DNA from: an uncultured Phycisphaerales bacterium
Lineage (GTDB): Bacteria > Planctomycetota > B15-G4 > CAYZWU01
Reading direction: 5' to 3'
Assembly: GCA_964464495.1 (NCBI GenBank)
Contig: CAYXGI010000009.1
Location: forward strand, 42,498-106,497
DNA: 64,000 nt
A program made the translations under genes and the position numbers. The notes beneath the pieces are model-generated. The model was not told the DNA's origin and made no database searches. It was given only the letters and a program-made list of their open reading frames with translations. Positions 14,040 to 45,113 of this stretch are shown here, piece by piece; position 1 is the first letter of the stretch, and the number at the start of each line of letters is the position of its first letter.

Positions 14040-14378
14040 GATGACTCGATCGTGACTGAAAAGACGGGGCTCGAAAAACGGTCAAATTGAATCAAAGAAA
14101 ATACATTAAATTGTGAAACTGTCAAGGGGAAAAAGAAAACGCGCTCCATGAGCCTGTCGGAATTGGAAATCGATCATGACTCCGGTTGAAAGGAACGAAG
14201 ACAAATGACTCTCGCAAAGCCGCCAGGGGCGCAAAGGAGGATAAGAGGTGGATTCAGGATTCAGAATCTTCTTGCGGCTGGCTGTACTGGCCGGTTCCCG
14301 ACCCGACAGTTTGCCGTGAAGCATTTTTCAATGAGCTGCTTGGCCTATAGCATCGATTTTCAAATTTTCTCTTTTTCT

Positions 14379-14424
14379 TTGACGTCCCGGAGGTGGGTGG
14401 CGTATAATTCCGAACGAACGTTCG
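14379..14424 (+). promoter_or_regulatory. sigma-70-like promoter (TTGACG-N18-TATAAT) with downstream 10-bp perfect palindrome CGAACGTTCG (putative TetR operator)
   Basis: TTGACG at 14379..14384 and TATAAT at 14403..14408. Palindrome at 14415..14424. All lie immediately upstream of the TetR gene. Confidence 0.5.
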
Positions 14425-14442
14425 ATAATATTATGACCTTTT

Positions 14443-15084
14443 TTGGGCAGAGCCATGATTCCGAAACCGACGCCCCGGAACAGACGCCCCGCAACGGACA
14501 AGAAATTTTCGCGGATTTTCACCGCGGCCGTAAAGGTCTTCTCGAAAACAGGTTTCGAGAAGGCATCGATCAGGATGGTGGCGGCGAAAGCCAAGGTCAG
14601 CCTGGCGGGGATCTACTATCACGTTCACTCGAAAGAGGAGCTTCTCTTTCTGATCCAGTACAAGGCGTTTCACACGATCCTCGAGAATCTCAAAACCACG
14701 CAGGGCGAGTTCGACGAATCCCGGCCTGTGGCGCGCCTTCACGCGATGATCAGGAATCACCTCGATTACTTTCTGAACAACATGGACGACTTGAGGATCT
14801 GCTCGCGCGAGCTCGATATTCTCACCGGCGTTTTCTACAAGAAGGTGGCCGAGGTGCGGCGCGAGTACTTCAAGATGACCCTCGATATGGTCAAGGACGT
14901 TTCCCGCGGGGACGGAAAGGACGCTGCCGTCGACCCGCGCACGGCAACGCTCTGTCTCTTCGGGATGTTGAATTGGGTCTACACCTGGTACGACCCTGGG
15001 AAAGACACTCCCGAAAGCCTGTCGGAACAACTGCTGCGGTTGTATCTTCATGGTGTCCACTCCGGGATCGAAGGGAGAACTTGA
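14443..15084 (+). CDS. TetR/AcrR family transcriptional regulator
   Basis: N-terminal HTH (FSRIFTAAVKVFSKTGFEKASIRMVAAKAKVSLAGIYYHVHSKEELL) plus an all-alpha C-terminal domain. An alternative start lies at M5 (14455). Confidence 0.85.
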   Translation: MGRAMIPKPTPRNRRPATDKKFSRIFTAAVKVFSKTGFEKASIRMVAAKAKVSLAGIYYHVHSKEELLFLIQYKAFHTILENLKTTQGEFDESRPVARLHAMIRNHLDYFLNNMDDLRICSRELDILTGVFYKKVAEVRREYFKMTLDMVKDVSRGDGKDAAVDPRTATLCLFGMLNWVYTWYDPGKDTPESLSEQLLRLYLHGVHSGIEGRT

Positions 15085-15229
15085 TCATCGAGAAATTCAG
15101 CGATCGGGTCGGAAACGATGACGACCTTGACGAACTCTTTTAACGGGCTGTAAACAGAGACAGGTCGATGCTAAAATGAGCCTTCCAGTTTTTGCATCAT
15201 GGACAGGCACACGAGATTGAAGGAGATAC

Positions 15230-16240
15230 TTGATGGCTTCAAAGGAGATTCCAGTCGCTGTCGTCGGCGCGGGTACGGTCGGCTCGATGTTGATCGGCCA
15301 TTTTCTGCGCGCGGGATACGAAGACGTGGCCATAGTCGACATTCCTGAACGCATCGATCAGATCAAGGAGAAGGGCATACGCATCTCCAAGCTGAGAAGC
15401 ATCGACGTCAGGCCGGGCAATCTTTTCGAATCGATCGCGGACCTCAAGGGCCTGCACATTCAGACTCTCTACGTGGCCACGAAATCGACCCACCTGGCCA
15501 TGGTGGCGCCCGAGATCCAGAAGATTCACGCCAACGGAATGAAGGTGATCAGCTTTCAGAACGGGATCGGCACGGAAAATTATCTGGCCCAGTTCGTCGA
15601 TCCGGCGTGCGTGGCGCGGGTGACCGTCAATTTCGCGGGCAATCAGGACGAGGATTCGGGCGATGTGTTCATGAGCTGGTTTCATCCGCCCAATTTCCTC
15701 GGCCCCTATTATGAACAGAATCTGGAGCCCTTCGTACGCATCGCCGAAACACTCACCGAGATCGGTCTCGACACGCGCGCCGTGACGCACAAGGAGATCA
15801 AGAGGCAGGTTTTCTTCAAGACGATTCTGAACGCGGCGCTCAACGCACTCTGCGCCACCACCGGTTTGACAATGTCCGCCGCGATGCGCATGAAGCACAC
15901 ACGCCACCTGGCGCGCGAGCTCCTGCGCGAAGGGCTCAGCGTTGCGGCCCACATGGGCCACTCCTACGGCGAGGATGCGCTTTCACAGTGCATGGATTAC
16001 CTCGACAAGGGCGGCGACCACTACCCGTCGATGTGGTCCGATCTCAAGAAGAACAGGCGCACCGAGATCGATTACATCAACGGCAAGATCGTCAAGATCG
16101 CGCTCATGTTCACCGACCTGTCGGTGGAACTCAACAGGTTCTTCTGTACCATGGTCATGACCGAGGAGATCAAGGCCGGTTCACGCCGCGAGGAGGAGAT
16201 TCCCGACTATCTCGGCTGCGCCATCCGCCATTGCGGTTGA
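15230..16240 (+). CDS. 2-dehydropantoate 2-reductase (ketopantoate reductase, ApbA/PanE family)-like oxidoreductase
   Basis: Rossmann motif VAVVGAGTVGS at the N-terminus and a C-terminal ApbA_C-like region (RTEIDYINGKIV). Confidence 0.75.
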   Translation: MMASKEIPVAVVGAGTVGSMLIGHFLRAGYEDVAIVDIPERIDQIKEKGIRISKLRSIDVRPGNLFESIADLKGLHIQTLYVATKSTHLAMVAPEIQKIHANGMKVISFQNGIGTENYLAQFVDPACVARVTVNFAGNQDEDSGDVFMSWFHPPNFLGPYYEQNLEPFVRIAETLTEIGLDTRAVTHKEIKRQVFFKTILNAALNALCATTGLTMSAAMRMKHTRHLARELLREGLSVAAHMGHSYGEDALSQCMDYLDKGGDHYPSMWSDLKKNRRTEIDYINGKIVKIALMFTDLSVELNRFFCTMVMTEEIKAGSRREEEIPDYLGCAIRHCG

Positions 16241-30806: not shown

Positions 30807-32393
30807 TCATTCCTCCCAGTCGCCGCCCGATTCGAAACGAGCGGCGAATTTCTCACCGAGAAGACCCCTTTGCTTGTCCCCGTCGCCGACCATGGTGCGT
30901 GCGGCTTTCTTGAGCGAATCCTCGGCAGCCTGTCTGTTGCTGGAGCCGAATCCCTTGGATTCCTGCCCCTTGCCGATTGCAAAGGGAATAGTCTTAGAGG
31001 TTTCGAGTTCGAGCGCGTCGAGCGATACGCGGGTCTTGAAGCAGATCCCCAGTGCGGTGGTGCTGGAGTAGTCCGACTCGGCCGTACCAACGATGACGTA
31101 GTCGTACTTACCGCCGAAGAGCTTCGCCAGCGCTTTCATGGACATGCCGGCCACCTGCTTCACCGATTTTCCGGCCAGATCGGGAGAGGTGACCTGAAAT
31201 CCGAGATCGTTGAGGGAGACCTTGATCGCTTCGCCAACAATCGAATTCGGATTTTCTTTGCCTTGGACCGTCTCGTGAATGACCACTGCGATCCGTGTGG
31301 TCTCCATCGTCGGCATGAGATAGGTGACCGTACAACTCGGCGGGACCGCGTCGGAGCGCTTTTCGATTGCGGCGAAATCGAGCTCCACCTTGACGGCGTT
31401 GGCGTGCGAACCGGTGGCGGCGATTTCCTTGAGGCTGAAGGCGAAGAGTCCCTTCTCGTTCGTCGTTTCCGCGCGTGGGATGACCGTGGCGCTGTCGCGG
31501 ATTTTTTCCGGAAGGCGCACGGTCATGGGGAAGCCGGCAAGAGGCTTGCCGCTCGGGCCGGTCACCTTGACCACGATCTGTTCCTTCACGTTGCCCGAGA
31601 GATTGGCGACCTGCTCGTTGCCGGAGAGGACCTTCAATTGAATCGCCGATGCCTGGCGATCGTGGTCCTGAACCACGTTGTTCCAGAGGCCGCCGAGGTC
31701 GAGCGCGTCGAAACGGCCCTTTTGTTTCTTATCCGTGCCGACTGCGAGGGCCTTGGCGTGGCTGGAGAGAGCCACGGCCGCTGCGCGGCGCGCATGAACA
31801 ACGCTCTTCAGGGCATTGGTGAAATCTTTGCTCCCCAATGCGGTTCGCGAGGATTCGAGATAGCCGAGCGCTTCTTTCTTCTTGTCAGTGGCTTGATTGC
31901 AGAGCCTCTCCGAGAGCGCCAGCCGGTTCATGACGAGAAAGGCGTATGCAGTCCCGCTCTCCGGATCGTACCACTCCTCCACCTTTGTGGCGCCGGCGAG
32001 CAGTTCCGACGTCTCCATGCGCGTGTTGATCGCCACATCCTCGAAGGAATCGATCGAATCGTTGTACACGATCTGCCGCTGGATCGAGTCGAACTGGCTT
32101 TCCACGCGGGCCATGATCTGTTCCGAGATCTGAGTCAGGGCGTTCACTCTCGCAAGATCGAAGGCGTCCGTTTCAGTATGTTCGGGCTGGGAGACCCCTC
32201 GTGCGCGAATGAAATTCCCCACGGGATACCCCTTGACGTCGCCCGTCCTGATCCAGTCCGGACCGTTGGAGACGGTGGGGACCGTGTTGTTTTCGGGAGC
32301 CGTCCCATTCGGCGTCGTGACGCACGAGACACTGAGTATGACGGGCATTGCGAGAAAGACGAGGAGGGCCAGTTTCTTGACGCTCGATTTCAT
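30807..32393 (-). CDS. lipoprotein, function unknown
   Basis: Signal peptide with lipobox-like LSVSC (MKSSVKKLALLVFLAMPVILSVSC). 528 aa. The C-terminal region (DYVIVGTAESDYSSTTALGICFKTRVSLD) resembles LpoB/CsgG/TolB-N-like small beta domains. Antisense ORF 30870..32720 rejected. Confidence 0.55.
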   Translation of the reverse strand: MKSSVKKLALLVFLAMPVILSVSCVTTPNGTAPENNTVPTVSNGPDWIRTGDVKGYPVGNFIRARGVSQPEHTETDAFDLARVNALTQISEQIMARVESQFDSIQRQIVYNDSIDSFEDVAINTRMETSELLAGATKVEEWYDPESGTAYAFLVMNRLALSERLCNQATDKKKEALGYLESSRTALGSKDFTNALKSVVHARRAAAVALSSHAKALAVGTDKKQKGRFDALDLGGLWNNVVQDHDRQASAIQLKVLSGNEQVANLSGNVKEQIVVKVTGPSGKPLAGFPMTVRLPEKIRDSATVIPRAETTNEKGLFAFSLKEIAATGSHANAVKVELDFAAIEKRSDAVPPSCTVTYLMPTMETTRIAVVIHETVQGKENPNSIVGEAIKVSLNDLGFQVTSPDLAGKSVKQVAGMSMKALAKLFGGKYDYVIVGTAESDYSSTTALGICFKTRVSLDALELETSKTIPFAIGKGQESKGFGSSNRQAAEDSLKKAARTMVGDGDKQRGLLGEKFAARFESGGDWEE

Positions 32394-32444: not shown

Positions 32445-33296
32445 TCAGAAAATGTACTCTTTGCCCTGTTCGAGCAGGGCGACGTTTTCGAGGCCGAGAG
32501 CCTCGATCTCGTTGCTAATAGTTGTAAGGTATTCAGGTTTCAAGTGAGTGACGAAAACCTTCACGTTGCCGAGGGTTTTCTCGATTTCATGGCCGAAAGC
32601 GGTCGTCGAAAGATGTTTGGATATCTTCGCGATCTTCGCTTGATCGGCCGGAAAGGAGGCCTCGAGAAAAGTGGCCTTGAGATTCTTGACCTGGTCGAGG
32701 ATTTGAGCGAGACCTTCTAGAGAAGATGTGTCGCTGCAGATTGCGACAGTGGAGTCCGGATCCCGAATCAGGTAGCCGTAGCATTCCACGGAATGGTCCA
32801 TCGGGAAAGGGACGATCTCGATGTTTCCGATCGCCACGTTCTCACCGGCCGCGAGCACGGTCATTTCGAGAATATCCGTGTGCGCGTTGGAAAACTTCGA
32901 GAAATCGGGCCAGAGGTAGTCGTTGAAGAGATGGTCCTTCAAACAACGGATCGTGTCCTCGGGACCGAGAACCTTCACAGGCTTCGAGATGAGGGAAAAG
33001 ACATTGTCCAGAAGAAACGGCAGACAAGCGAGATGATCGATGTGGGAGTGGCTGACAAAAACATGACTGATCCGCGCTTGCTCTTCGATGGGAAGGACAT
33101 GAGCCAGCGCCCCCGCGTCTATTGCGATCCGATCGTCGATCAGGTACGACGTGGTCCACATCCCCGGCGCGTAGCCTCCGTAACATCCCAGTACTCGAAT
33201 TCTCAAGAAACCCCCTTTTCTATGAAGGTTTGTTGATGTCGACTGCCCATCCCTGTCGCTCGGGATCCTATCAGGGAACTCGGGGCTGGTCAACAT
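32445..33296 (-). CDS. MBL-fold metallo-hydrolase (class II cyclic-nucleotide phosphodiesterase-like)
   Basis: HxHxDH motif (VSHSHIDHLACLPF) and further His/Asp ligands (PMDHS, VTHLKPEY). The actual start may be an internal or non-ATG codon near 33200; the ORF-track start is used. Confidence 0.65.
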   Translation of the reverse strand: MLTSPEFPDRIPSDRDGQSTSTNLHRKGGFLRIRVLGCYGGYAPGMWTTSYLIDDRIAIDAGALAHVLPIEEQARISHVFVSHSHIDHLACLPFLLDNVFSLISKPVKVLGPEDTIRCLKDHLFNDYLWPDFSKFSNAHTDILEMTVLAAGENVAIGNIEIVPFPMDHSVECYGYLIRDPDSTVAICSDTSSLEGLAQILDQVKNLKATFLEASFPADQAKIAKISKHLSTTAFGHEIEKTLGNVKVFVTHLKPEYLTTISNEIEALGLENVALLEQGKEYIF

Positions 33297-33399
33297 GTTG
33301 CGTTTGTTAACTCTTTTTGCCTCAATAGGGGACGTGAATCAAAGAGATTTCCTGACTCGCGGGCGGGACGACTCTTACAACGACTGAGCAGTCTGCTTT

Positions 33400-35001
33400 T
33401 TGGAGTGGTGCATGATGGGATTTTTCCTGGCAACTGCGACCGACTGGGTCGGCTGGATCGCGGTTCTGGTCGCTGTCTATTTCATGGTAATTCTGATCAA
33501 GCAATCGCTCCGGCGCACGAAAGATCTGAGGTCGGTCCTGATCGTTGCCGCCCTCGTTCTCCTTCCCGCCGTGCTCCTGGCGTTTCTCTATTACGATGGG
33601 AATGTTCTCGGAGTCTTCGATCCTGATCTCGACGCGCAGAAGGCCGATCAGTGGTGGATCTTCGAGATCGAGAGGACCAATGGTGAAGATGAGGGCGCCG
33701 AGGCGATCACCGTGACGGTCAATCTTCTTGCGGCGTTGATCATCATCGCCACCCTGTACATTGTCATGACTGTCCTGATCTCCATCGCGTCGACGATGTA
33801 CTTCAATAGAAAAAAGACGGAGTGGCTCGCGATCCACAAGGCGCTGATCAAGTGGCCGATCGTAATCGTTGGGTGTCTCGTCTGTTTGAAAATCCAGATT
33901 GGGGCTATTCTCCTCGGCACGAGTGTCATCGTGATCGGCCTCGGACTTGTGTTGAAGGAGATGCTCGAAAACCTTTTTACGGGTATGGCGCTCGAGATGG
34001 AGGGCACCCTCAATCAGGGGGACTGGATCCAGGTCGGCAACAGCGATCAGGTGGGGCGCGTCTACGAAAAGAGCTGGCGCGTGACCAAGGTTCATACTCT
34101 CAACGACGAGTCGATCACCATCCCCAACAGGCTCCTGGGCACTGAAAAGATTCTGAATTACAACAAACCCGCCGGTCCACATGCCCGCAACCTTTACGTG
34201 GGCACCTCCTACAACGATCCGCCGGTCAAGGTCAAGGAGATCTTGAGGACGATTCTTATCCGCGAACCCGAAGTTCTCAACGACCCCCAGCCTCTCGTTC
34301 GTACCATCGAGTACGGAGATTTCGCCATCAACTTCGAGATGAAATTCTGGATCAGGAGTTATGCCAGGCGGAATTTCATCGAAGACAAGATCATGACCCA
34401 GATCTGGTATGCGTTCAAGTATTACGGTGTGCAGATCCCCTTCCCGATCCGGACTTTGCACATGAAGAAGATGGGGCACCTCGACGCGGAGAGCGACGCG
34501 ATCACCGACGAGGTGAAAGAAAAGCTCGATTTCCTGAGAGGCCTGCCCTACTTCAGCGGCCTCGTGCAGAAGGATCTCGAGTACATGGCTCTCAATTCCT
34601 TCAGGCGCAACTATGACGTGGGCGAACGCGTGGTCCACAAGAACGAGATCGGCGACGCCCTATACGTCGTGATGAGCGGCTGGTGCGATGCGTTGCTTCC
34701 CGACGGCCGCCGGCCGCGCATCGAAGCAGGGCAGTACTTCGGCGAGATGGGTCTCCTCGGGGCGAGTCCCCGAACCGTCGATGTGGCGGCGGGCGAAGAG
34801 GGGGCGCTCGTCATGAGAATCGACAAGCATTGCATGTCGGTTCTCTTCAGGAGCTATCCCGAACTCCTCGATCACTTCCGCGAAATTCGCGATGCCAGAA
34901 GAAAAGAACTCCCTGCCGAAGACAGGGAGGAGGCTGTGCGCAGAGTGGGACTGGTTCGGAAACTCTGCCTGGGGATGAAGGATTTCTTCAGGCCCTGGTA
35001 A
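33400..35001 (+). CDS. MscS-family mechanosensitive channel fused to C-terminal cyclic nucleotide-binding domain
   Basis: Multiple N-terminal TM helices. MscS beta-domain signature GDWIQVGNSDQVGRVYEKSWRVTKVHTLNDESITIPNRLL. C-terminal cNMP-binding domain (GERVVHKNEIGDALYVVMSGW...QYFGEMGLLGASPRTVDVAA). Confidence 0.8.
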   Translation: MEWCMMGFFLATATDWVGWIAVLVAVYFMVILIKQSLRRTKDLRSVLIVAALVLLPAVLLAFLYYDGNVLGVFDPDLDAQKADQWWIFEIERTNGEDEGAEAITVTVNLLAALIIIATLYIVMTVLISIASTMYFNRKKTEWLAIHKALIKWPIVIVGCLVCLKIQIGAILLGTSVIVIGLGLVLKEMLENLFTGMALEMEGTLNQGDWIQVGNSDQVGRVYEKSWRVTKVHTLNDESITIPNRLLGTEKILNYNKPAGPHARNLYVGTSYNDPPVKVKEILRTILIREPEVLNDPQPLVRTIEYGDFAINFEMKFWIRSYARRNFIEDKIMTQIWYAFKYYGVQIPFPIRTLHMKKMGHLDAESDAITDEVKEKLDFLRGLPYFSGLVQKDLEYMALNSFRRNYDVGERVVHKNEIGDALYVVMSGWCDALLPDGRRPRIEAGQYFGEMGLLGASPRTVDVAAGEEGALVMRIDKHCMSVLFRSYPELLDHFREIRDARRKELPAEDREEAVRRVGLVRKLCLGMKDFFRPW

Positions 35002-35015
35002 GGCCGATCCGACTA

Positions 35016-36209
35016 TTACTGGCCCGTGTATTTTTGGAACCGCTCGACGTTGAGTTGCCCCCTGTTCTTGAGTCCCAGTTTCACCATGTCCATTTTCATG
35101 GTGGTGATTCTCTGAGATGGAGTCGGGTGGGACGACATGCACTTGCCGAGGGTCTTCGAATCCCCGAAGACATCCCTGAACCGTTCCAGAAGAGTGATCG
35201 CCGCCTGAGGGTTGTAGCCGGCGCGGGCGAGGTAGACGAGAGATGCGCGGTCTGCCTCGTTCTCCATGACCTGGTTGTAGGGGTTTTGCGTGTAGGCGTA
35301 GAATTCATCGCCGATCGCAGTGAGCTCCTCGACCAGTTTCTTGAAGTCCTCGGCCTGCTCGGGGAGCTGTTCGTCCAACTCGGCGAGAGCGTCCTTCATC
35401 ATGTAGCGGTACTTGGCCTTGTTGAGCGATTGGACAGCGTGGCGCTCGGAGACGTGACCCAGCTCGTGGGCGAGGATCGCGGCGAGCTCGGCTTCGTTTT
35501 TACAGAAATCGATCGCGCCGCGGGTGATGAACAGGAAGCCGCCCGGGACGGAAAAGGCGTTCACTTCATCGGAGTCGAGAATGACGAAGTAATAGGTGAG
35601 GGTGTTGCGGGGGCTGACCTGGGCGAGCGTTGTACCCACGAAGGAGACGTACTCCCAGAGTTTCGGATCGTTCCACTCGGGCGTCTCGTGGAGGATGCGG
35701 GCGGAAACACCCTTGCCGAGCTCGATCTCGTCGGCGTCGGAAAAGGATGATGTCAGGTCACCGCTTATGGCGTCGCGTCCGGCCTTGCGGTTTTTGAGGT
35801 CCTCGAGGTCATCGATGACCGCCTGGTCTTCTTCCAACGCGGCCGGCAGGCGGGAGAGAGCGGTTTCCTTGTCGCCCGCGATGACCGCCTTCCGTCTCGC
35901 CTCGGCAGCCTCCTCTGCAGAGGGTTCGTCCTTTTCGGCAGGCTCTTCGGCTCTGGCCGGCTCTTCGGCAACGGCCACGACCTCTTCGGGAGGTGCCTCT
36001 TCGGTCACGGGTTCCTCATACCCCTCTTCGTACTGCGGTCGCACCCTGTCGACGGTCCGTGTGACTCGCGATTGCGACGAGGTGGACGCAAAGGAGGGCT
36101 TCTTGGCAAGCGGCGCTGTCTGGCCGGTCTGTTTCTCGGTGGTGGCGCACGAGAGACTGCTGAGAAGGAGGATGGTACAGACGACGAGGCTGATGAGTTT
36201 CCGCATCAT
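35016..36209 (-). CDS. M48-family zinc metalloprotease lipoprotein (BepA/LoiP-like)
   Basis: Lipobox LLLSSLSC. HEXXH zinc motif AILAHELGHVSERH. Acidic/Ala-rich linker region. Confidence 0.8.
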   Translation of the reverse strand: MMRKLISLVVCTILLLSSLSCATTEKQTGQTAPLAKKPSFASTSSQSRVTRTVDRVRPQYEEGYEEPVTEEAPPEEVVAVAEEPARAEEPAEKDEPSAEEAAEARRKAVIAGDKETALSRLPAALEEDQAVIDDLEDLKNRKAGRDAISGDLTSSFSDADEIELGKGVSARILHETPEWNDPKLWEYVSFVGTTLAQVSPRNTLTYYFVILDSDEVNAFSVPGGFLFITRGAIDFCKNEAELAAILAHELGHVSERHAVQSLNKAKYRYMMKDALAELDEQLPEQAEDFKKLVEELTAIGDEFYAYTQNPYNQVMENEADRASLVYLARAGYNPQAAITLLERFRDVFGDSKTLGKCMSSHPTPSQRITTMKMDMVKLGLKNRGQLNVERFQKYTGQ

Positions 36210-36673
36210 TATTTCAAGCCTCCATTGCGAATGAAGCTTTCGAATCGGTTGAAATTCAACCGGCGGTCCATGACACTCTTTACTTTGGTCGTGTCAGTCC
36301 CGTTCTTGTTCGCGTAGAGATCGCCTGAAAAACCTTTGGCAACGAGACCGGACGTGGCCGGAGTGGCTGCAACGGGAAGTTTCAGATCTCCTGCAGGAGC
36401 GGCATCGGTCTTGATTTCACAGAAGACCCACCCCTTCTTGTCGAGGGATTCGACCTCGACCTGCTTCCACGATCCCCTCTCCCTGAGAATGGTGAGGATC
36501 TCGCCCTCCTTGATCTCCGCCAGGGGTTTGAAAGCCTTGTTCCAGCGGGGGAAGAGCTTGAGACCGTCCTTGCCGACTTTCAACGAGGACTTGTCCTGGA
36601 GCGACATGGAGAGGGCGGTTGCGGCGAGAAGAAGAAAGACGATGAGAAAAAAGAATTTAGAGCGATCAAGCAT
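36209..36673 (-). CDS. membrane-anchored SH3b-domain protein
   Basis: Start at ATG 36673 (GGAG RBS 8 nt upstream) gives MLDRSKFFFLIVFLLLAATALS as TM/signal, followed by an SH3-like beta domain (KEGEILTILRERGSWKQVEV...GWVF). Its stop overlaps the M48 gene start by 1 nt. Confidence 0.6.
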   Translation of the reverse strand: MLDRSKFFFLIVFLLLAATALSMSLQDKSSLKVGKDGLKLFPRWNKAFKPLAEIKEGEILTILRERGSWKQVEVESLDKKGWVFCEIKTDAAPAGDLKLPVAATPATSGLVAKGFSGDLYANKNGTDTTKVKSVMDRRLNFNRFESFIRNGGLK

Positions 36674-36729
36674 TGTGAGACTCCAGATTTTACGATCCCA
36701 CATGAGTTCCTGTAAAAGAGACCCGACTT

Positions 36730-39066
36730 CTATTTGCTTTCAATCCTGAAAACTCCGCCCCAGTCTTGAGCAGGCGGAGATTTGGCGAACTGCGAGCAGC
36801 GGTCGAGAAAGACAAGTGAAGGCCGGTCTCCGGTTTTCTTGCTGATTTTATCAAAGAGATCGGCCGCTTCCCTGAAGCGGCTTTCTCCGTAGAGCGACCG
36901 CGCTCTTTCAAAATCTATCAGGAGCTCTTTGTCAAGAGGATTTGTTTCCTCTGCTCTGGAGAGCACCTGGTAAATCCCGATGGGGGGGGCTTCTTCGACC
37001 AGGCCCGGAACCCTGATCTTGTCGACGAAACGTGACTGGATCGCATCGCCCGCCATGGTGTATGTGCTGTCACCGATCAGGATCAGCGTGCCGTAAACCT
37101 TGTTGACTCCCTCGAGGCGTGAGGCGAAGTTCACCGACGATCCGATCGCGGTGTAACTGAACCTGTCGAGCGAGCCCACGCACCCCACCGTGGCTTCTCC
37201 CGAATAGAGACCGATTCGTGTGACGAGGGCCGGATCGCCCGCCTCGACAGCGTTGGAGTTGAATACGTCGAGGCGGCGTTGGCATTCGAGAGCTGCCTGG
37301 CAAGCGGCTCGTGCATGGTTCTCGATCGGCAAGGGAGCACCGAAAATGGCGACCACCGCATCGCCGATGTACTTGTCGAGAGTCCCTCCGCAATCGGTGA
37401 TCGCGTGGGTCATCTCGGTGAGGTAGGCGTTGAGGTGGTCGGTGAGCCGTTCGGGATTCTCACGCATCTCGGGTGTGTTCGAGATGCTCGTGAAGCCCTG
37501 GATGTCCGAGAAAAAGACGGTGATGTCCCTCTTTTCGCCTCTCGTGAAGAGGGCATCGGGATTACTGATGAGATGCTGCACCACGGCGGGCGGCGCAAAG
37601 TGCTTGAACATGCGGGAGATCTCCCGACTCCGCCGCCCTTCGGTGAAGTAGTTGTAGGTTGTCCCGCTCGAATAGGCCAGCGCGATGCCGAAGAGAGGGG
37701 CGATCGTGTCGAGCCAGAATCCCGCTCCCAGAAAAAGCCACGCCGCGGCCGCCATATAGACGAGCGCGATGCCCAGAATCGAGACGAGCTTGAGCATGTT
37801 GAGCCTGACGAGAAAGGTGATCAGGGCGGCTGTCGCGGCGAGACACGCCGCCAGGATCGCGCGTGCCAACAGACCGAGGCGGGCGATCGCCTCACCTCTG
37901 AGAACACTCTCTGTTAGGGCCGCGTGCACCTTGACGCCGGGATAATTCTCGGAAATGGGTGTCGCCTTGAGGTCGTAGAGTCCGGGCGCGTTTGCGCCGA
38001 GAAAGACGATCTTGTCCTTGAAGAGCCCAGGTTCGAGATAGGAACTCTCATCGATCTCGTCGGCCGGCATCCCCTGATCTTTGAGCATGGAACAGAACAC
38101 GCGTCCAGCCGGGTAAATCTTGAAATACCCCGCTTCGAGGCTGGTGATATCTCTCTCGTCATTGTCTCGCCACTTGACGAGAACATCTCCGCTCGGCGTC
38201 AGAGGCAGCACGAGCCTCTCTTCTTCGGATTTCCGGTCGAGAAGGAGACTGCTCCCTTCGACTGCGAGCTCCCAGCTTTCAGCCCCGTCCGTCGATTCGA
38301 TCGAGGCCAGGGCCGCCGCAAGGCCGAGGGACGGATAGTGATGCCCGCCAAAGGAGACGAAGGGCCGGACCCGTCTGATCACCGAGTCCGAATCGGGTTG
38401 CGCGCAGACCGCGCCGAGACGAAGAAACTCTTCGGCCCCGTTGAATTCCTGGAGAATACCGGTGTAGGGCAGGAACACCTCCTGGTAGGGGCCGTCCTCG
38501 GTGCGGCCGAAGGGAAGGTCCGATTCTTCAGCGCCGCTGACCGTGATCGCACTCGTCGCGAGGCATGCCTTCTGGAGGGGTGTGAACTCGGGCAGGTCGG
38601 GGCTCGGATTCTCGTAGGCGGCGAAATTGATCGTGTGAATGACGAAGGGATTTCCCTCTTCGTTCTGGAAACAGGTCCCGGCTCCGAGCGCGCTGTCGCC
38701 ATCGAGCGCATCCTGGGAATAAGGATTCGAGAACTCGAAGTCGAAGGCGAGGGCCCGCGCACCCTCGTTGGCCATGTACTGAATGATCATGTCGTAGACG
38801 AGCCGGTTCCAGGGCCAGTTGAAGATGTAGGCTCTCTCGTCCTTGTCCTTGTACTTGAGATAGTAGTCCCGTCCCCAGTCGAGAGTCGACTTGTCGATCA
38901 TGATGATGCTGACGATGTCGCTCTGCGTCTCGTCTTCCGTTCCCGCCCGGGCGAGAAGGTCGTATACGTCGTGCTCCCAGCGTTCGAAAAAGTTGACCTC
39001 GACGAGCAGAATCAACAGGAGAGCCAACAGACCCGTGAAAAGCAGAATCGCCGTGCGTCGTTTCAT
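36730..39066 (-). CDS. CHASE2 sensor domain-containing class III adenylate/guanylate cyclase
   Basis: 778 aa. N-terminal TM plus large periplasmic CHASE2-like region, then TM helices. Cyclase homology domain (FSDIQGFTSISN...DKYIGDAVVAIFGAPL...RIGLYSGEATVG). Confidence 0.85.
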   Translation of the reverse strand: MKRRTAILLFTGLLALLLILLVEVNFFERWEHDVYDLLARAGTEDETQSDIVSIIMIDKSTLDWGRDYYLKYKDKDERAYIFNWPWNRLVYDMIIQYMANEGARALAFDFEFSNPYSQDALDGDSALGAGTCFQNEEGNPFVIHTINFAAYENPSPDLPEFTPLQKACLATSAITVSGAEESDLPFGRTEDGPYQEVFLPYTGILQEFNGAEEFLRLGAVCAQPDSDSVIRRVRPFVSFGGHHYPSLGLAAALASIESTDGAESWELAVEGSSLLLDRKSEEERLVLPLTPSGDVLVKWRDNDERDITSLEAGYFKIYPAGRVFCSMLKDQGMPADEIDESSYLEPGLFKDKIVFLGANAPGLYDLKATPISENYPGVKVHAALTESVLRGEAIARLGLLARAILAACLAATAALITFLVRLNMLKLVSILGIALVYMAAAAWLFLGAGFWLDTIAPLFGIALAYSSGTTYNYFTEGRRSREISRMFKHFAPPAVVQHLISNPDALFTRGEKRDITVFFSDIQGFTSISNTPEMRENPERLTDHLNAYLTEMTHAITDCGGTLDKYIGDAVVAIFGAPLPIENHARAACQAALECQRRLDVFNSNAVEAGDPALVTRIGLYSGEATVGCVGSLDRFSYTAIGSSVNFASRLEGVNKVYGTLILIGDSTYTMAGDAIQSRFVDKIRVPGLVEEAPPIGIYQVLSRAEETNPLDKELLIDFERARSLYGESRFREAADLFDKISKKTGDRPSLVFLDRCSQFAKSPPAQDWGGVFRIESK

Positions 39067-39089: not shown

Positions 39090-41105
39090 TCAGTGTGCGC
39101 AGATGTCAAGGACGAGCAGGGCATAGGAGGTGGCCAGAACCGGATTTCCCTCGAACCACCGCGGCGACCTCTCATTGATCCACGACCCGTCGATTCGCTG
39201 GATGCTCAGGATTTTCTGAGCCAGCTCCTTTTTCCACGGGTGGGGCGTTCCGCGCGAGTCGGTGATGATCTCGCGTCCAAAGGCGTCGAGAGCCCTCGCC
39301 ATGGTCAGGTAATAATAGAACAAGCCCTGCTGTCCGGCGTCGGGGTTTTTCGTCTGCTCGAACCCCGGATTCTCCTCGAGAGTATAATGGTTTTCGACCC
39401 ACGTTACTGCAGCTTTGACCCGTTTGTCCTTTCGATCGAGTCCAGTGAAGATCAACGATTTCAAAAGGGCGTAGGTCATCGAGCCGTAGGATCGTGCCAC
39501 GAAAACACCCTTGTCCACCTCGCTGACGCCTGCCTTGGAGTCACCTGGATAGTAGATTCCGCCTCCGTCCGTACCAGCCACGACTTTTCGCCCATCACTC
39601 AGGATGACCTCGGTGGGATTGGTCTCGGCCTGGTTCTGGCACTTCCTGATGAAATTCAGGGCTTTCTGAAAAGCCTCGTGATCTTTGTCGAGACCGGCAG
39701 CCCGTAGCGCGTCGAGCGCCATCTGCGTGTTGGAGAGGTCGGGCCGCTCATCGCCGCCATAACCCAGCCCGCCGTAAAAGGGATCTTCTTCCATCGAATA
39801 CCCTTCGTCCTCGTCGGCCTGGACAGCGACGAGAAAGGCGCGTGCCTTCTCGATCGTTTCGGAGTAAGCCGGATCGCGCGAGTCGACGAAAGCCATGAGC
39901 GCCACTGATGTGACGTACGTCTTCAGACCGGTGAGAAAGATGCTCCCGTCGTCTTTGCGAAGAGAATCGAGATAATGGAGCCCTTGATCGACGTAAGACG
40001 GTGAAGAGCGTTCGAGGAGGCGCGCACTCCTGATCGCTGCCGAAAGGGCCATTCCGGTGATCCCAGGGTCGTCGTATCCGTCGAAACCGAACTTGCCTGA
40101 TTTCTGGTTTCCGTCGAGAAAATCCAGTCCTTTTGCCACGGCATCATTCAGCCCAAGCGGTGTTGCCACGATGTCGGGCAGGGGGGGGGCTTCGTCAGGG
40201 GGCGCAGCCTGACGCTCCGCCTTCTGAGCACTCTCAGCACATAGGGACATGGCGGCCGCGATCAGGGCGGACTCCGCGAGGTGGTTCTTCATCGGTTGAT
40301 CGTCAAGATCGGCGATGCGGGAGATTGCGATCCCCGCCATGCGGTCTGCCCAGAGCAGCGGCGGGGTTCCACTGTTTTCGAGTTCGAGAAAGAGTTCGCA
40401 AGCGGCCAGGATGGCAATGGGAGAGAGTTCGGGAGCGTCCGCTTGGCGGATATTTCTCTCTAATTTTTCCCGCCATTCGGTCACGAAGCCGGCTGCTATT
40501 TCCCGACCGCTCATCAGGCGACAAACGCTCTTGTAGAGTTGCGCCCGCGGACCCTCACCGCACCGGGATTCGGCAGTGGCCAGAATGGAGGCTCTCTCGT
40601 GTGCGAAAGCGAGGCACAGCGCAAAGCAGGTTTCCGGGTCGATCGGGCTGTCGGTCTGCTCGATCTGCTTGACCAGGAATTCAGTCGCTCCAGATATGGA
40701 GTCAGCGTATCCAACTCCGTTGACCCTCGAGAGAGCAGCCACGACGAGCGCCGTCGAACGCACGATGTCGCCATGTTCGGCTGGTTTAAAGGAGCCGTCC
40801 GCGCGTTGTGTCGCAATCAGGCCCTCGGCCGCCTTCCGTACGAAGGGGCCGTCCCTGTCAGTGTATTTCCGAGGAGACGTGGCCATGGTGAAAAGCACCA
40901 TCGATGTCACATCCGGTTGCAGGGACTGACGTCCGTAGGTGCCGTCCTGATTCTGACAGGTGCGAAGATCGCGGATCGTGGCGTCGACCATGTCCTTGAG
41001 ATCTTGACCTTGAGCCGGAGAACTCAAGCTGAGTGCGATCAGCAAGCAACCCAGAATCGAAAGAGCCGAAAAGAGTCTGATCTTCCGCTGTTTTTGAACT
41101 CTCAT
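39090..41105 (-). CDS. secreted prenyltransferase/squalene-oxidase-repeat (alpha/alpha-toroid) protein
   Basis: Start at the internal Met (ATG 41105) gives signal peptide MRVQKQRKIRLFSALSILGCLLIALSLSSPAQG. Repeated QxxDGSF/GxW-type motifs are typical of terpenoid-cyclase/protein-prenyltransferase toroid repeats (QNQDGTYG, QRADGSFK, RKDDGSIF, QRIDGSW). Confidence 0.65.
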   Translation of the reverse strand: MRVQKQRKIRLFSALSILGCLLIALSLSSPAQGQDLKDMVDATIRDLRTCQNQDGTYGRQSLQPDVTSMVLFTMATSPRKYTDRDGPFVRKAAEGLIATQRADGSFKPAEHGDIVRSTALVVAALSRVNGVGYADSISGATEFLVKQIEQTDSPIDPETCFALCLAFAHERASILATAESRCGEGPRAQLYKSVCRLMSGREIAAGFVTEWREKLERNIRQADAPELSPIAILAACELFLELENSGTPPLLWADRMAGIAISRIADLDDQPMKNHLAESALIAAAMSLCAESAQKAERQAAPPDEAPPLPDIVATPLGLNDAVAKGLDFLDGNQKSGKFGFDGYDDPGITGMALSAAIRSARLLERSSPSYVDQGLHYLDSLRKDDGSIFLTGLKTYVTSVALMAFVDSRDPAYSETIEKARAFLVAVQADEDEGYSMEEDPFYGGLGYGGDERPDLSNTQMALDALRAAGLDKDHEAFQKALNFIRKCQNQAETNPTEVILSDGRKVVAGTDGGGIYYPGDSKAGVSEVDKGVFVARSYGSMTYALLKSLIFTGLDRKDKRVKAAVTWVENHYTLEENPGFEQTKNPDAGQQGLFYYYLTMARALDAFGREIITDSRGTPHPWKKELAQKILSIQRIDGSWINERSPRWFEGNPVLATSYALLVLDICAH

Positions 41106-41492
41106 TGTGATCTCAATCCTTTTTTTGACGTCACGGGACAAAGAGCTATTGTGGCACAACGAATAGAATTCACGAAGGTTCTTTGCATATTGGCCTGACC
41201 TCACGCTTTCCATCTCTTTGGGGGGGGCGCGGCGTGAAGATTGACTGCTCGGAATGCCTGGTAAAATAGCGACGATCTGTACGCGGCGCACGGTGTGTGG
41301 GTCAATTCTGCACTCTGTTCGGACCGTTGTGATTACAGTTACCCTCTGACTCATCGTTGAACAACCGGTACTCTGGGCGAAAAATCTCCAGAGTCGAGCG
41401 CGGAGTGGCAAATTTTACTTAACCTCTATAATTTGAGGATATTATGAAAATTATTCCACGGAACCGGCCAATGGCACAGTGAAGTCCGAATA

Positions 41493-41512
41493 CCATGAAC
41501 AAATGTTCATGG
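41493..41512. promoter_or_regulatory. 20-bp perfect palindrome CCATGAACAAATGTTCATGG (GAAC-N4-GTTC core; Cheo/LexA-box-like operator)
   Basis: Seen directly in the AT-rich intergenic region between divergent genes 39090..41105 (-) and 41860..43512 (+). A TGATACAAT extended -10-like element lies at ~41666. Confidence 0.4.
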
Positions 41513-41859
41513 TCTCTGAAATCCTTTCAGCGATCGCGGAAGTGGTGTGAGAATTCTGATCAATGAGTCCATTATTTTAATCATCATAATGTATTTAAAT
41601 TAAACTGGATAGAAGTCTTTGATAGATTTTCTCTTTCGGACGCACTAATCGTTTTTTATTTGATACAATGACACTGACGCCGTTGTAATCAGTGTTGAAA
41701 GCGATGTTGCTTGATTCTGCAAAATCTCGTCACCACTGATAATGTGTGGATTATTCTGGAGAATTTTGCCGGAAAAATTAGAATTTGAAACCATTCTTCG
41801 AGGGTTTTCTATGCCAGGGAGGCACGAGTCGATACTTGCCCTCTTGAAGCGAGGATAGT

Positions 41860-43512
41860 ATGCCAGCAAAAAAGACGAGCCCCATGCTCAAGAAGATCTG
41901 TTCTCTCCTCAAAAGTGAGAACACGGAATTCCAATGCGCAGCGTCGATGGTGCTGGGTGAATTGGGCTCGAAGGATTCGCTCATAATCAAATCACTGGGC
42001 GAAGTTTTGAACAACGGGGAAGACAAGGTCCTCAAAGGGTTGATTCTCGATGCCTTTGCCAAGATCAAATCCAAGGAATCGCTGAAATACCTTCTGCCTT
42101 TTCTTTTCAACAAATCCTTTCAGGAGAGTGAATTCGGGAACAAGGCGATCGCCATCGCGTCCTCTCTCAGCAACGACAGCGCCAGAGAACTCAAATCCCT
42201 CTTGAAGAAAGCCAACGCTGAGAAGAGGAAGGTAATCAACTCGATCTTCATCAAAATGAAAAGTGTGGAGGGCCTCAAAGTCGTTCTTGATTCGCTCTTT
42301 GACGACGACGAGACGGTGATCGCCGATATCTGCAGGCTGATGAAGCACGAAATGAAGCTTCTCAATGGCAAGGAGCGAAAATCCTTTAGTTCACGTGTTG
42401 AAAAATTCCTGATCACTCCAAAAACACGCAAAAATTTGAACGCTACTGCCGCGGCGATCAAGATTCTCGGCTACATCGGTGACTCTAACGCGTTGAACAC
42501 GCTGATGATGTTCACTGTCCTCCAGAATCACCCGACGATCCGGAGCTACGCGCTAACTTCTTTGAGAGAAATCCCTTTTCACGACAAGGTCAAGAACGAC
42601 GTCATCCGCAAGCTGGTTTCCTTCTTGAACGAAAAGGAATTCAACGCCATCGTCAGCCCAACCCTCGACATTCTTTCGCGAGCTCCGATTCATTCGAGCC
42701 TGAGCGACATCATCATCAATCTCCTCGGGAGCGACCACGATGCAGTGAGACGATTCGCGCTCAGGAAGATGAGAGAATTCAACACGGTAAAGGTCGTCAA
42801 GATCCTCATCGAAAAACTTTCAGATCAGGACCCGCGCATTCGGGACCTCGCTGCCGAATCTCTTTGCTGGCTCGATTCCGCTCGCAACGTTCTTCTCGAT
42901 AACCTCTTGAAAGAAAAAGATCTGGAAAGGTCGAGACTTCTCTCGAGGATTCTCCGGCCCCATTCGACCAAGTTCAGAAAAGACCAAGTCAACAAGATCG
43001 GCGATGTTCTCAAGGGGCATCTCAAAACGGAGAGCCCTCTCCAGGAGCCACTGATTCTCCTTCTGAAAACACGCTCCCCTGACTATCTCCACGATATCCT
43101 TCTGAGCCGTGCGGTCGAGTTTAAGAAGAGGAAAAAATTCGAGAGTGCCGTGAAGGTCCTCGATCTCTTAAAGAAGAACGAACACCTTACCGTCGAGGGG
43201 CAGTATCTCATGGGTGTCTGCCTCCTCAGGCTGTCCAAAAAAAGCATCATCAGGGTGCATCGCGATTCTGATGAATGCCTCAATATCTTTCAGAGATTGA
43301 TAAAGAACGACTCCTTCCCCCTCTCCCAGAAGCTGCGGAGCGACTCGTCTCTCGATCAGGCCGATCTCTTCTACGTGGGATACCACTTTTCCGAGAAAAT
43401 GCAGACCGAGCGTATATTGGGCGGAGAATTGCTCAGATATCTCGCGAAGAAGAAGTCCAAGGCCAAGGTCTGTGTCGCGTCCCGCGACAAGATCCTTGAG
43501 GAAGGTCTCTGA
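41860..43512 (+). CDS. HEAT/PBS-lyase-like repeat protein, lysine-rich, on a low-GC segment
   Basis: 550 aa all-alpha protein with repeated ~30-40 aa helix-turn-helix units (LGELGSKDSLIIKSLGEVL, LGYIGDSNALNTLMMF, LREIPFHDKV, RFALRKMREFNTVKVVKILIEKLSDQDPRIRDLAAESL). GC is ~47% (counted on the first ~150 nt) against ~65% in flanks. GGGAGG RBS upstream. Confidence 0.7.
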   Translation: MPAKKTSPMLKKICSLLKSENTEFQCAASMVLGELGSKDSLIIKSLGEVLNNGEDKVLKGLILDAFAKIKSKESLKYLLPFLFNKSFQESEFGNKAIAIASSLSNDSARELKSLLKKANAEKRKVINSIFIKMKSVEGLKVVLDSLFDDDETVIADICRLMKHEMKLLNGKERKSFSSRVEKFLITPKTRKNLNATAAAIKILGYIGDSNALNTLMMFTVLQNHPTIRSYALTSLREIPFHDKVKNDVIRKLVSFLNEKEFNAIVSPTLDILSRAPIHSSLSDIIINLLGSDHDAVRRFALRKMREFNTVKVVKILIEKLSDQDPRIRDLAAESLCWLDSARNVLLDNLLKEKDLERSRLLSRILRPHSTKFRKDQVNKIGDVLKGHLKTESPLQEPLILLLKTRSPDYLHDILLSRAVEFKKRKKFESAVKVLDLLKKNEHLTVEGQYLMGVCLLRLSKKSIIRVHRDSDECLNIFQRLIKNDSFPLSQKLRSDSSLDQADLFYVGYHFSEKMQTERILGGELLRYLAKKKSKAKVCVASRDKILEEGL

Positions 43513-43823
43513 GCGAACGAGCTCCCATACATTAGTTGATCCCACTCTTCTCATTCCCCGATCCAGGCCCTCCGTGGTCTGAGATCCCACTGTTTTCGCA
43601 CTTTCCGCCGGACCACGTCACGCTCGTCGGGAATCTCATGCCCGACAGCAGTCCATGCCCGAAGTCGATGATTTACGCGGACTAAAGACTTGCGCGCATT
43701 CTGGCGATGATTAGGTGGATAAGAAACCTGGGAGTATTCCGTTCCGACGGGGCGCTTTCCGTTCCGACGGGACGTACTCCCTTTGGACAGTGTCGAAATT
43801 ACCGATACGCTTGGAACCAAGCT

Positions 43824-45113
43824 ATGCGCCTACTAGAAGCGGACAGAAGTCTCGAACTGCTCGAAGAGAACCGAAAGAGACTCGACGAAGTCACCTTCGA
43901 ACTTCTGAACACCTATGAACACCTCGCCGCGATCTATGAACTGGCGGCACGTTTGTCAAATACACGGTCGATCAGCGACGCGGCCCGGCTGACACTCTCC
44001 TCTGCCGTGAACGTGTCCGAATCGACAGGCGGCGTAATCATCATTCCGCGCCACGGCGTGATGGAGACCATTGCGGGTCTCTATTCGACCAAAGAGATCG
44101 AAGACTATGCCCAACTGAAAGCCAAGCAGCACCTCAACGAGTGCCGGTACGAGGACAAGGTGCAGCAAAGGATCTCAGCGCACGACGGACGCTTTCTGTC
44201 GAGTACTCTCTACATACCCCTCGCCGTCGGTGGAAGACGGGACGGCATTCTGTTCCTCTTTTCCACGAAACAGAAATCCTACTCGAGCGTGGACGTGAAG
44301 ATCACGCGCGTCCTCGCCGGCCAGGCAGCACTCGCTGTCAAGAACCTCGTCATGCTCGATGAACTCGAGGAGAAGAACGCGCGCCTGTCCGAGGCTCTGA
44401 GAGACCTCGGGACCGTCCAGAACGAGCTCATCCGATCGGAGCGCTTCTCGGCCCTCGGTGAGATGTCGAGCATGATCGTTCACGACATCAAGAATCCGAT
44501 GAGCGGGCTTCAGGGTTACGCCCAACTGCTTTATGCCACTGCAGAGTCCGTCCTTCCCGACCAGGTGCGGGAGTACTCCGGCCTGATCATCCAGGAAATG
44601 AGGAGGCTCTCCGGCCTGACCGAGGAAATACTGGATTTTTCGCGGGGAGTGGACAGCAAACTCAACCTCAGAAAAATGGAACCGCGCGACGTGGTCAACA
44701 CAGCCTGGCCCCTGCTCAAATCGGACCTCGAAAGCCACGGCATGACGATGGTCAGGGGAAATCTCGAAACCCAAAAAAAGGTCAGAGTCGATTCCGACAA
44801 GATGGAGCGTGTTCTGATCAATCTTGCTGTGAACGCACGGCAAGCCATGGGATCGGGCGGCTGTCTGACTGTTTCGATTCACGAGACCGACAAGTGGGTG
44901 GAGATTTCCTTCAAGGATACAGGCACGGGAATCCCTGAGGACCGTGTCAATGAGATCTTCGATCCCTTTGTGACGCGAAAGCGGGGGCAGAGTCTCGGCA
45001 TCGGCCTGGCCATGTCCCGCTGGATCGTTCATTCTCACGAAGGGGATGTTCTACTCGCCGAAACCGGTACCGACGGCACCAGAATGGTGGTCAGGCTGCC
45101 GGCAGTGACATGA
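43824..45113 (+). CDS. cytoplasmic GAF-domain sensor histidine kinase
   Basis: Start at the internal Met (MRLLEADRSLELLE). GAF-like N-terminal region. HisKA H-box SALGEMSSMIVHDIKNPMSGL. HATPase_c motifs (NLAVNARQAM, DTGTGIP, GQSLGIGLAMS). No TM segment. Confidence 0.8.
   Translation: MRLLEADRSLELLEENRKRLDEVTFELLNTYEHLAAIYELAARLSNTRSISDAARLTLSSAVNVSESTGGVIIIPRHGVMETIAGLYSTKEIEDYAQLKAKQHLNECRYEDKVQQRISAHDGRFLSSTLYIPLAVGGRRDGILFLFSTKQKSYSSVDVKITRVLAGQAALAVKNLVMLDELEEKNARLSEALRDLGTVQNELIRSERFSALGEMSSMIVHDIKNPMSGLQGYAQLLYATAESVLPDQVREYSGLIIQEMRRLSGLTEEILDFSRGVDSKLNLRKMEPRDVVNTAWPLLKSDLESHGMTMVRGNLETQKKVRVDSDKMERVLINLAVNARQAMGSGGCLTVSIHETDKWVEISFKDTGTGIPEDRVNEIFDPFVTRKRGQSLGIGLAMSRWIVHSHEGDVLLAETGTDGTRMVVRLPAVT

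Follow-up and report, generated by a model that had tools for sequence, protein, structure and literature searches.

A probable cyclic AMP signalling cassette built around a CHASE2 cyclase and a bCNG-type channel in an uncultured Phycisphaerales bacterium

Do neighbouring genes for a CHASE2 cyclase, an MscS-type channel with a cyclic nucleotide-binding domain (CNBD), a metallo-beta-lactamase (MBL)-fold phosphodiesterase, an M48 protease and a small SH3b-like protein form one dedicated circuit, or do they merely lie side by side? The question is posed by positions 32445-39066 of a 64-kb stretch of DNA from an uncultured Phycisphaerales bacterium (contig CAYXGI010000009.1), the whole of which we refer to as the window. 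A circuit of cyclase, phosphodiesterase and CNBD effector follows textbook logic, and the original prediction for this DNA had proposed a chain running from sensor to second messenger to ligand-gated channel to degradation, which comparative genomics and the conservation of catalytic and ligand residues support. Exactly five open reading frames (ORFs) are present in the interval, at the coordinates and on the strands predicted, and we have corrected the start codons of three of them, those for the MBL protein, the channel and the small protein. As described earlier, a distance of 1.7 kb separates the cyclase from the channel, and the latter and the MBL gene are transcribed divergently. The predicted domains were upheld by Pfam, with the exception of SH3b, whose copy in the window scores below threshold and which was recognised by other means. 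Our analysis leads us to regard the five genes as very probably one cyclic AMP (cAMP) signalling cassette made of two modules, one for input and one for output and reset. Functional statements throughout are drawn from sequence, predicted structure and gene neighbourhood.

The cassette is kept independently of its flanks in other genomes and its modules recombine, the independence of arrangements being judged by gene order and identity. At two loci (L173 and L171; relatives are referred to by locus number) a CHASE2 adenylate cyclase gene is followed by a gene fusing SH3 to M48, which converges on an MscS-CNBD channel gene that is in turn divergent from the MBL phosphodiesterase gene. The proteins are 40-50% identical to those of the window and the flanks are wholly different, with no homologues of LpxK, of a 528-residue lipoprotein, of a protein resembling squalene-hopene cyclase (SQHop-like) or of the HEAT protein. 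At L089 (41% channel identity) all five genes are kept and the flanks are rearranged. The divergent pair of phosphodiesterase and channel persists down to 31% channel identity (L004, L001, L002/L088), being kept in L004, a member of the Phycisphaeraceae with a 31% identical channel, and in L088 (43%), from which the block of cyclase, SH3b and M48 genes is missing. In L001 the pair is followed by a different CHASE2 cyclase convergent with the channel, with FecR and TPR genes upstream of the cyclase in place of M48, and in L087 the channel likewise converges on a different CHASE2 cyclase with FecR and TPR genes upstream and no M48 there. In two metagenome-assembled genomes (MAGs) of Thermoanaerobaculia (L018 and L026, 29-31%) the channel converges on a CHASE2 cyclase which is preceded by an M48 gene. 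A CHASE2 cyclase adjoins an MscS-CNBD channel in varied orders in other lineages at L087, L018, L026, L096, L127, L129, L131 and L133, and shuffled versions of the cassette are also found on unassigned metagenome contigs.

A broader view comes from 80 arbitrary metagenome loci with CHASE2-type cyclases (27-39% identity), sampled from among the matches listed. As many of these contigs are short, the frequencies that follow are rough lower bounds. The controls were 53 loci (809 kb) around MscS genes mostly without a CNBD (two have a CNBD match), and contained no M48, cyclase or MBL phosphodiesterase-type gene. Measured against this small and phylogenetically unmatched set, M48 genes immediately adjoining the CHASE2 cyclase in the same orientation were enriched (at least 14 of 80 versus 0 of 53; Fisher p = 8e-4), with both upstream and downstream positions seen, as was the MBL phosphodiesterase type (at least 9 of 80 versus 0 of 53; Fisher p = 0.011). 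An MscS-CNBD channel was found at no fewer than 6 of the sampled loci, and FecR at 12 or more (E<=1e-4), where it seems to be mutually exclusive with M48. The genes also occur in permuted orders (M48, cyclase, channel; cyclase, M48, channel; channel, M48, cyclase; phosphodiesterase, cyclase, M48; cyclase, CNBD, phosphodiesterase, channel), with same-strand permutations at L096, L106, L112, L127, L129, L131 and L133. On the strength of these neighbourhood statistics and of the cassette copies in foreign flanks, the co-location of the five genes exceeds chance.

CNBD genes of other kinds were also seen at CHASE2-cyclase loci (L125:12273-13478, L157:2793-3965, L116:6831-9089, L112:6515-7168), including genes for CNBD-rhodanese proteins right after the phosphodiesterase gene, a protein with three CNBDs and a ferredoxin domain, and a stand-alone CNBD protein of 218 residues. 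The gene content of these loci suggests an exchange of output modules in the cassette.

The cyclase matches CHASE2 (PF05226; 126 bits, 2.5e-36, residues 15-398) and Guanylate_cyc (PF00211; 61.5 bits, 1e-16) in Pfam. Its hydropathy profile, with hydrophobic segments at residues 2-30 and 393-452, indicates an N-terminal transmembrane helix, a periplasmic CHASE2 domain of approximately 360 residues (~31-392) and a transmembrane cluster (393-470), followed by a cytoplasmic catalytic domain (~510-690) and a C-terminal extension of some 80 residues. This is the layout of a CHASE2 receptor, with the extracytoplasmic domain held between a transmembrane helix and a transmembrane cluster and the output domain downstream. 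An alignment of seven CHASE2 cyclases (A2; 27-83% identity) shows no variation in D521 and D569, which bind metal, in K565 and T639, which define the substrate, or in N646 and R650, which belong to the transition state. A Lys/Thr pair, in which Thr replaces the Asp of class IIIa, reportedly marks class IIIb adenylate cyclases in the Linder & Schultz classification, and the best solved relatives in the PDB are the IIIb enzymes CyaB1, Pseudomonas aeruginosa CyaB and Spirulina CyaC. By its residues the protein is thus classed as a class IIIb adenylate cyclase with its catalytic set intact, and because of the K565/T639 pair we infer that its product is cAMP. The C-terminal extension (residues ~700-778; LIDFERARSLY...FLDRCSQF...GVFRIESK) is common to many metagenome cyclases, whose matches reach residue 778, and is missing from the cyclases of L001, L087, L018 and L026.

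Downstream of the cyclase on the minus strand lie the genes for the small protein and the M48 protease, whose predicted 1-nt stop/start overlap is real (TAATG), and the three genes are probably co-transcribed. The M48 protein (Peptidase_M48, PF01435; 92.7 bits, 3.3e-26) consists of a signal peptide with Cys21, an acidic linker rich in Glu, Ala and Pro (~60-150) and the M48 domain, in which the translation contains the HExxH motif as H248-E-L-G-H252 and ExxAD as E316-N-E-A-D320. By sequence it is probably a lipoprotein. The small protein has a signal peptide, an SH3-like beta-barrel (~30-90), a conserved tail AA(S/T)P(T/A)TSGLVxKG(F/W)S and then helices. Its SH3_3 match in the window is below threshold (18 bits versus a cut-off of 27), and homologous small ORFs beside M48 and cyclase genes in L091 and L134 pass that cut-off with 36.4 and 32.9 bits. 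The family profile matches proteins with multiple SH3_3 domains. The AlphaFold2 model of the core has a predicted local distance difference test (pLDDT) score of ~95, and its top Foldseek matches are all SH3 or SH3b folds, some with a root mean square deviation of ~2.1 A over 56-60 residues, at weak E-values (>=3e-3). Sequence and model together identify the protein as SH3b-like. A word-index search for its homologues gave only four near-identical sequences, and an exhaustive HMMER profile search, used instead, matched 74 proteins. In seven representative clusters (P0206, P0207, P0209, P0210, P0212, P0213 and P0217; 478-511 residues) the SH3 core and tail are fused N-terminally to Peptidase_M48, and such a fusion gene immediately follows an orthologous CHASE2 cyclase in L170 and L173. 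Because of this Rosetta-stone fusion in relatives we treat the M48 and SH3b proteins as one predicted unit. The earlier suggestion that the two could process or anchor envelope components was vague, and it can now be sharpened to a single unit tied to the CHASE2 cyclase.

Two described systems bear on what this unit might do. In Sinorhizobium meliloti the CHASE2 cyclases CyaD1, CyaD2 and CyaK sense a protein signal via a separate envelope protein, NsrA, and their cAMP acts on Clr (PMC13001267). The locus resembles that system in its fusion of CHASE2 to a class III cyclase, its separate envelope protein and its CNBD effector, and differs in that the rhizobial partner is an outer-membrane beta-barrel and the effector a transcription factor, as opposed to M48/SH3b proteins and an ion channel. 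In Burkholderia the 'BiofilmReg' operon encodes a CHASE2 histidine kinase and a periplasmic LysM-FecR protein (PMC5192318). Here again a CHASE2 receptor gene stands beside an exported partner with a probable wall-binding domain, LysM there and SH3b in the window, whereas the output is a kinase and response regulator in place of a cyclase and the partner is FecR in place of a protease. The compartment shared with CHASE2, the occurrence of FecR or LysM-FecR proteins in the same slot elsewhere and the rhizobial envelope partner lead us to infer, by analogy, that M48/SH3b would be a co-sensor that acts upon a proteinaceous or peptide cue or presents it. FecR proteins (L001:14723-16947, L087:17237-19419 and those of the metagenome sample) often come with a TPR protein and are alternative periplasmic neighbours of CHASE2 cyclases; the L087 neighbourhood adds a 1196-residue protein rich in fn3 domains.

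The explanation that competes with a co-sensor role, and which we consider doubtful, is that M48 and SH3b serve general envelope quality control in the manner of BepA or LoiP and are co-transcribed with the cyclase without any part in signalling. The best NCBIfam match of the M48 protein is indeed the BepA model, the cassette is conceptually complete without M48/SH3b, and L001 and L087 have FecR instead. The protease resembles BepA and LoiP in its M48 fold, in its HExxH and ExxAD motifs and in being exported or a lipoprotein. However its scores are far from the equivalog cut-offs of these two proteins (94.5 bits, a partial match, versus 570, and 39.2 versus 365), it has no Pfam match to the TPR domain of BepA, and it differs further in its long acidic linker, its pairing or fusion with SH3b and its genomic tie to CHASE2 cyclases. 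The same-strand adjacency described above, absent from the controls and found on either side of the cyclase, also argues against housekeeping, as does the SH3b-M48 fusion directly 3' of the cyclase in L170 and L173. The occupation of the same position by FecR at other CHASE2 loci suggests instead a slot for co-sensors (PMC5192318).

The channel has Pfam matches to MS_channel_2nd (PF00924), MS_channel_3rd (PF21082) and cNMP_binding (PF00027, 47.7 bits), and aligns with residues 25-280 of Escherichia coli MscS including the pore helix TM3 (GLGLVLKEMLENLFTG vs GLAVGLALQGSLSNLAAG). Its CNBD contains the phosphate-binding cassette F447-G448-E449 ... R458-T459 (numbered on the 533-residue ORF), in which F447, G448, E449 and R458 are invariant among 26 aligned channels (A1) and T459 is found in at least 90% of them. 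The architecture is common to most of 120 listed homologues, and the nearest named relatives come from MAGs of uncultured Phycisphaerales and Planctomycetota. We therefore have, by sequence, a bCNG-type MscS channel with a cyclic nucleotide-binding domain, for which gating by nucleotide is predicted. bCNG is an established family of MscS-CNBD channels (Caldwell et al. 2010, Malcolm et al. 2012, as related in the review PMC13591265). According to that 2026 review the family has neither a known physiological role nor a known structure; the review names no cyclase or phosphodiesterase as a dedicated partner, and it relates that overexpressed bCNG channels failed to protect E. coli from hypoosmotic shock (PMC13591265). 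Like the described members, the channel of the window combines the pore helix and vestibule domains of MscS with a CNBD at the C-terminus. It differs in being planctomycete-like where those are mostly cyanobacterial, in two extra N-terminal hydrophobic segments seen in its hydropathy profile and in being embedded in a conserved cassette with a cyclase and a phosphodiesterase.

Several observations weigh against a single dedicated cassette. Synteny with the nearest relatives, whose channels are 87% and 60% identical to that of the window, spans the region from a TPR gene to HisKA, and since it extends well past the cassette we have set these relatives aside as evidence of linkage. A channel with 54% identity stands without any partner in L086, and for most of the bCNG-type channels from Verrucomicrobiota in a GTDB sample (L009-L027) neither a cyclase nor a phosphodiesterase gene lies within 10 kb. 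Around 60 of the 80 sampled CHASE2 cyclases, many of them on short contigs, have none of the neighbours discussed here. The R-T-V sequence of the CNBD gives no discrimination between cAMP and cGMP, and atypical class-II phosphodiesterases, the group to which we assign the MBL protein below, are broad in specificity, 2',3'-cyclic nucleotides included (PMC9293780), which makes the turnover of cAMP less certain. Finally, scanning 30.5-42 kb for consensus promoters and terminators gave no operon boundaries, its terminator-like sites not clearly exceeding the shuffled expectation.

Alternatively the locus could hold two independent units, namely a CHASE2 cyclase with M48/SH3b that feeds effectors encoded elsewhere, for instance CRP-type regulators, and a phosphodiesterase/bCNG pair using the cAMP of any cyclase, the two not being wired to each other. 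The modules can indeed be separated, L088 having the divergent pair without the cyclase trio and L091, L100, L122, L128, L134, L148 and L168 having M48 without channel or phosphodiesterase, and cAMP is diffusible so that coupling needs no adjacency. We nevertheless think it unlikely that the units are unconnected, as a cyclase adjoins an MscS-CNBD channel in four or more arrangements in distant lineages (L087, L001, L018/L026, L096, L127-L133 and L173), the four- or five-gene cassette has moved whole between differing flanks, and the control loci have none of these genes. The window as a whole contains no further CNBD or cyclase genes.

The reset step of a dedicated cassette would depend on the MBL protein. 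It matches Lactamase_B_2 (53 bits) and PDEase_II (PF02112; 45 bits versus a gathering cut-off of 23.7), and the PDEase_II cut-off is exceeded in 41 of 41 aligned family members. The predicted HxHxDH signature is present as S52-H53-S54-H55-I56-D57-H58 (SHSHIDH), and across the same 41 sequences the dinuclear-metal ligands H53, H55, D57, H58, H138, D159 and H221 are all invariant, as is H198. Rv1339, YhfI and CpdA, enzymes that hydrolyse cAMP, make up the atypical class-II phosphodiesterases, for which [T/S]HxHxDH is the defining motif (PMC9293780). The AlphaFold2 model (pLDDT 97) finds as its best Foldseek matches YhfI (6kns; 4.7e-17, TM-scores 0.76-0.80) and yeast PDE1 (4ojv; 1.1e-16), followed by BA1088, RNase Z and Apyc1, and the sequence identity to YhfI is ~21%. 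With Rv1339, YhfI and CpdA and with phage Apyc1 the protein shares the MBL fold, the motif, a length of ~250 residues and a relatedness to RNase Z; it differs from typical members of the atypical group in also exceeding the gathering score of PF02112, the family of typical class-II enzymes, and from Apyc1 in not being phage-borne. Against NF041851, the equivalog for cyclic nucleotide-degrading phosphodiesterase, it aligns over the full length (31-254 to profile 1-223) with 44.9 bits versus a cut-off of 400, which by sequence makes it a relative and not an equivalog.

A reading of this protein as an RNase Z/BN-type nuclease or a PhnP-type phosphoesterase, next to the channel for reasons unrelated to cAMP, is very unlikely. 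RNase Z models, matched in part, give its top NCBIfam scores, its best PDB sequence match is E. coli RNase Z/ZipD (4e-10) and several homologues are named 'ribonuclease BN' by JGI, but all these family matches fall far under their cut-offs (best 64.9 bits versus 315 for the RNase Z equivalog) and cover the N-terminal half only, and the chain of 253 residues is nearer to YhfI (~240-250) than to the RNase Z chains of ~270-307 residues among the fold matches. The gene moreover repeatedly adjoins those of cyclases and CNBD proteins and in L151 is fused to GAF-HD. Given the motif, the PDEase_II match, the YhfI/PDE1 fold and the missed cut-offs of RNase Z and NF041851, we place the protein in the atypical class-II phosphodiesterase group and not with RNase Z, and predict that it hydrolyses cAMP. 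The L151 gene (L151:11386-13809, plus strand), directly 3' of a CHASE2 cyclase, is an 808-residue ORF in which GAF and HD_5 (HD-GYP-like) domains are joined to the MBL phosphodiesterase type, and is possibly a ligand-regulated dual phosphodiesterase.

In the divergent intergenic region a promoter-like TTGACC-17-TAGGAT site (33293-33265) falls within the earlier and longer ORF of the MBL gene. GGTCAAC, which corresponds to the minus-strand -35 box TTGACC, and TAnCA, which belongs to the -10 box, do not vary among seven orthologous intergenic regions (A6), while the sequence around the boxes is only ~42% identical, and of the sites found in the promoter scan this one only proved to be conserved. 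We consider it a putative sigma-70-like promoter of the phosphodiesterase gene. The most likely start of that gene is TTG 33206, because of the AAGGGGG Shine-Dalgarno sequence upstream of it, the typical length of 253 residues in homologues and the position of the promoter inside the longer ORF. No inverted repeats or CRP-box-like palindrome were found in the divergent intergenic region.

If the five genes do act as one cassette, signalling would begin in the periplasm, where CHASE2 together with the exported SH3b and M48 proteins would read a cue from the envelope or from outside the cell, probably in the form of a protein or peptide, while the catalytic domain of the cyclase, the CNBD and the phosphodiesterase are predicted from hydropathy to be cytoplasmic. 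The cue would switch on the class IIIb domain to convert ATP to 3',5'-cAMP. Each subunit of the MscS-type channel, presumably heptameric, would bind this cAMP through its C-terminal CNBD, and the gating of the channel would be altered. The passage of solutes or ions through the inner membrane could in this way answer a chemical signal, instead of or besides membrane tension, until the soluble MBL-fold phosphodiesterase hydrolysed the cAMP and ended the signal.

The same parts recall Pycsar anti-phage defence and its inhibitor Apyc1, which likewise combine a cyclase of class III type with a membrane effector fused to a CNBD and with a phosphodiesterase of the MBL fold. It is highly improbable that the locus is such a system, in which infection would trigger a cyclic (pyrimidine) nucleotide, the CNBD MscS-like effector would permeabilise the membrane and the Apyc1-like MBL protein would be a host brake: the cyclase domain matches PADLOC PycC models (best 5.8e-26, 89.5 bits, partial), the CNBD weakly matches PycTIR effectors, the Pfam matches of close phosphodiesterase homologues include PF23023 (Anti-Pycsar_Apyc1) and Apyc1 structures are among the fold matches, but the PADLOC matches cover only the class III and CNBD domains common to both, with none to the MBL, M48 and SH3b proteins, the cyclase has a periplasmic CHASE2 sensor and the adenylate-type Lys/Thr pair, the effector retains the complete MscS core, and the locus is set in conserved core synteny (ParA-like gene, LpxK ... 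HEAT, HisKA; 41-87% identity) and not in a variable island.

Table 1 Coordinates of the five genes and the candidate promoter, numbered from the first letter of the window
Feature	Position	Strand	Remarks
CHASE2-class IIIb adenylate cyclase (predicted)	36730..39066	-	778 aa; Pfam CHASE2 + Guanylate_cyc
SH3b-like protein, predicted exported	36209..36673	-	154 aa from ATG 36673 (earlier ORF 36209-36703); homologues 153-156 aa
M48 zinc metalloprotease, predicted exported	35016..36209	-	397 aa; Pfam Peptidase_M48
bCNG-type channel (predicted)	33412..35001	+	529 aa from ATG 33412 (earlier ORF 33400-35001)
Putative sigma-70-like promoter of the phosphodiesterase gene	33265..33293	-	TTGACC-17-TAGGAT; consensus scan + conservation
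MBL-fold phosphodiesterase (predicted), cytoplasmic	32445..33206	-	253 aa from TTG 33206 (earlier ORF 32445-33296)

The genes on either side of the cassette (Table 1) were considered as further members and rejected, being absent from L171, L173, L001 and L088 or, in L089, apart from the cyclase. The first encodes a probable lipoprotein of 528 residues (30807-32393, minus strand) with no Pfam or NCBIfam match. It lies 51 bp downstream of the phosphodiesterase gene, with which it may be co-transcribed in the lineage of the window, and its position is kept in L081, L084, L089 and the P0004 contig. The second (39090-41411, minus strand) encodes the SQHop-like alpha/alpha-toroid protein and ends 23 bp upstream of the cyclase. 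Its ORF of 773 residues is probably overlong, with a signal-peptide-like segment at residues 110-134 and homologues of 655-711 residues, and in L089 PMT_2 and radical-SAM genes separate it from the cyclase. An Rfam scan of the whole window gave no RNA families. The G+C content is 0.51-0.54 at positions 14001-16000 and 40001-44000 of the window and 0.58-0.66 elsewhere.

Each component belongs to a known family, while the cassette of CHASE2 adenylate cyclase, bCNG channel and atypical class-II phosphodiesterase and the partnership with M48/SH3b appear to be undescribed. A search of the open-access literature, where absence is no proof, found no description of a CHASE2-M48 or an MscS-CNBD/cyclase neighbourhood. 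The result is no surprise in kind and serves to generate hypotheses. The locus joins two long-standing gaps, the cue of CHASE2 domains, which has been described as unknown (PMC5192318) and for which the only precedent of a protein signal comes from rhizobia (PMC13001267), and the role of bCNG channels. It offers a defined system of four or five genes that can be reconstituted in E. coli and addresses both questions, and it suggests that fast, non-transcriptional outputs of cAMP in the form of channel gating exist beyond the cyanobacteria. A bolder proposal, which we put forward tentatively as a possibility, is that M48/SH3b is an obligate proteolytic co-sensor that makes, trims or removes a periplasmic or wall protein ligand read by CHASE2, and that the resulting cAMP directly gates the bCNG channel. 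Were this so, an envelope or extracellular protein cue would be turned into a change of flux within seconds, and the cassette would give the first mechanistic handle on CHASE2 sensing and on the purpose of bCNG channels.

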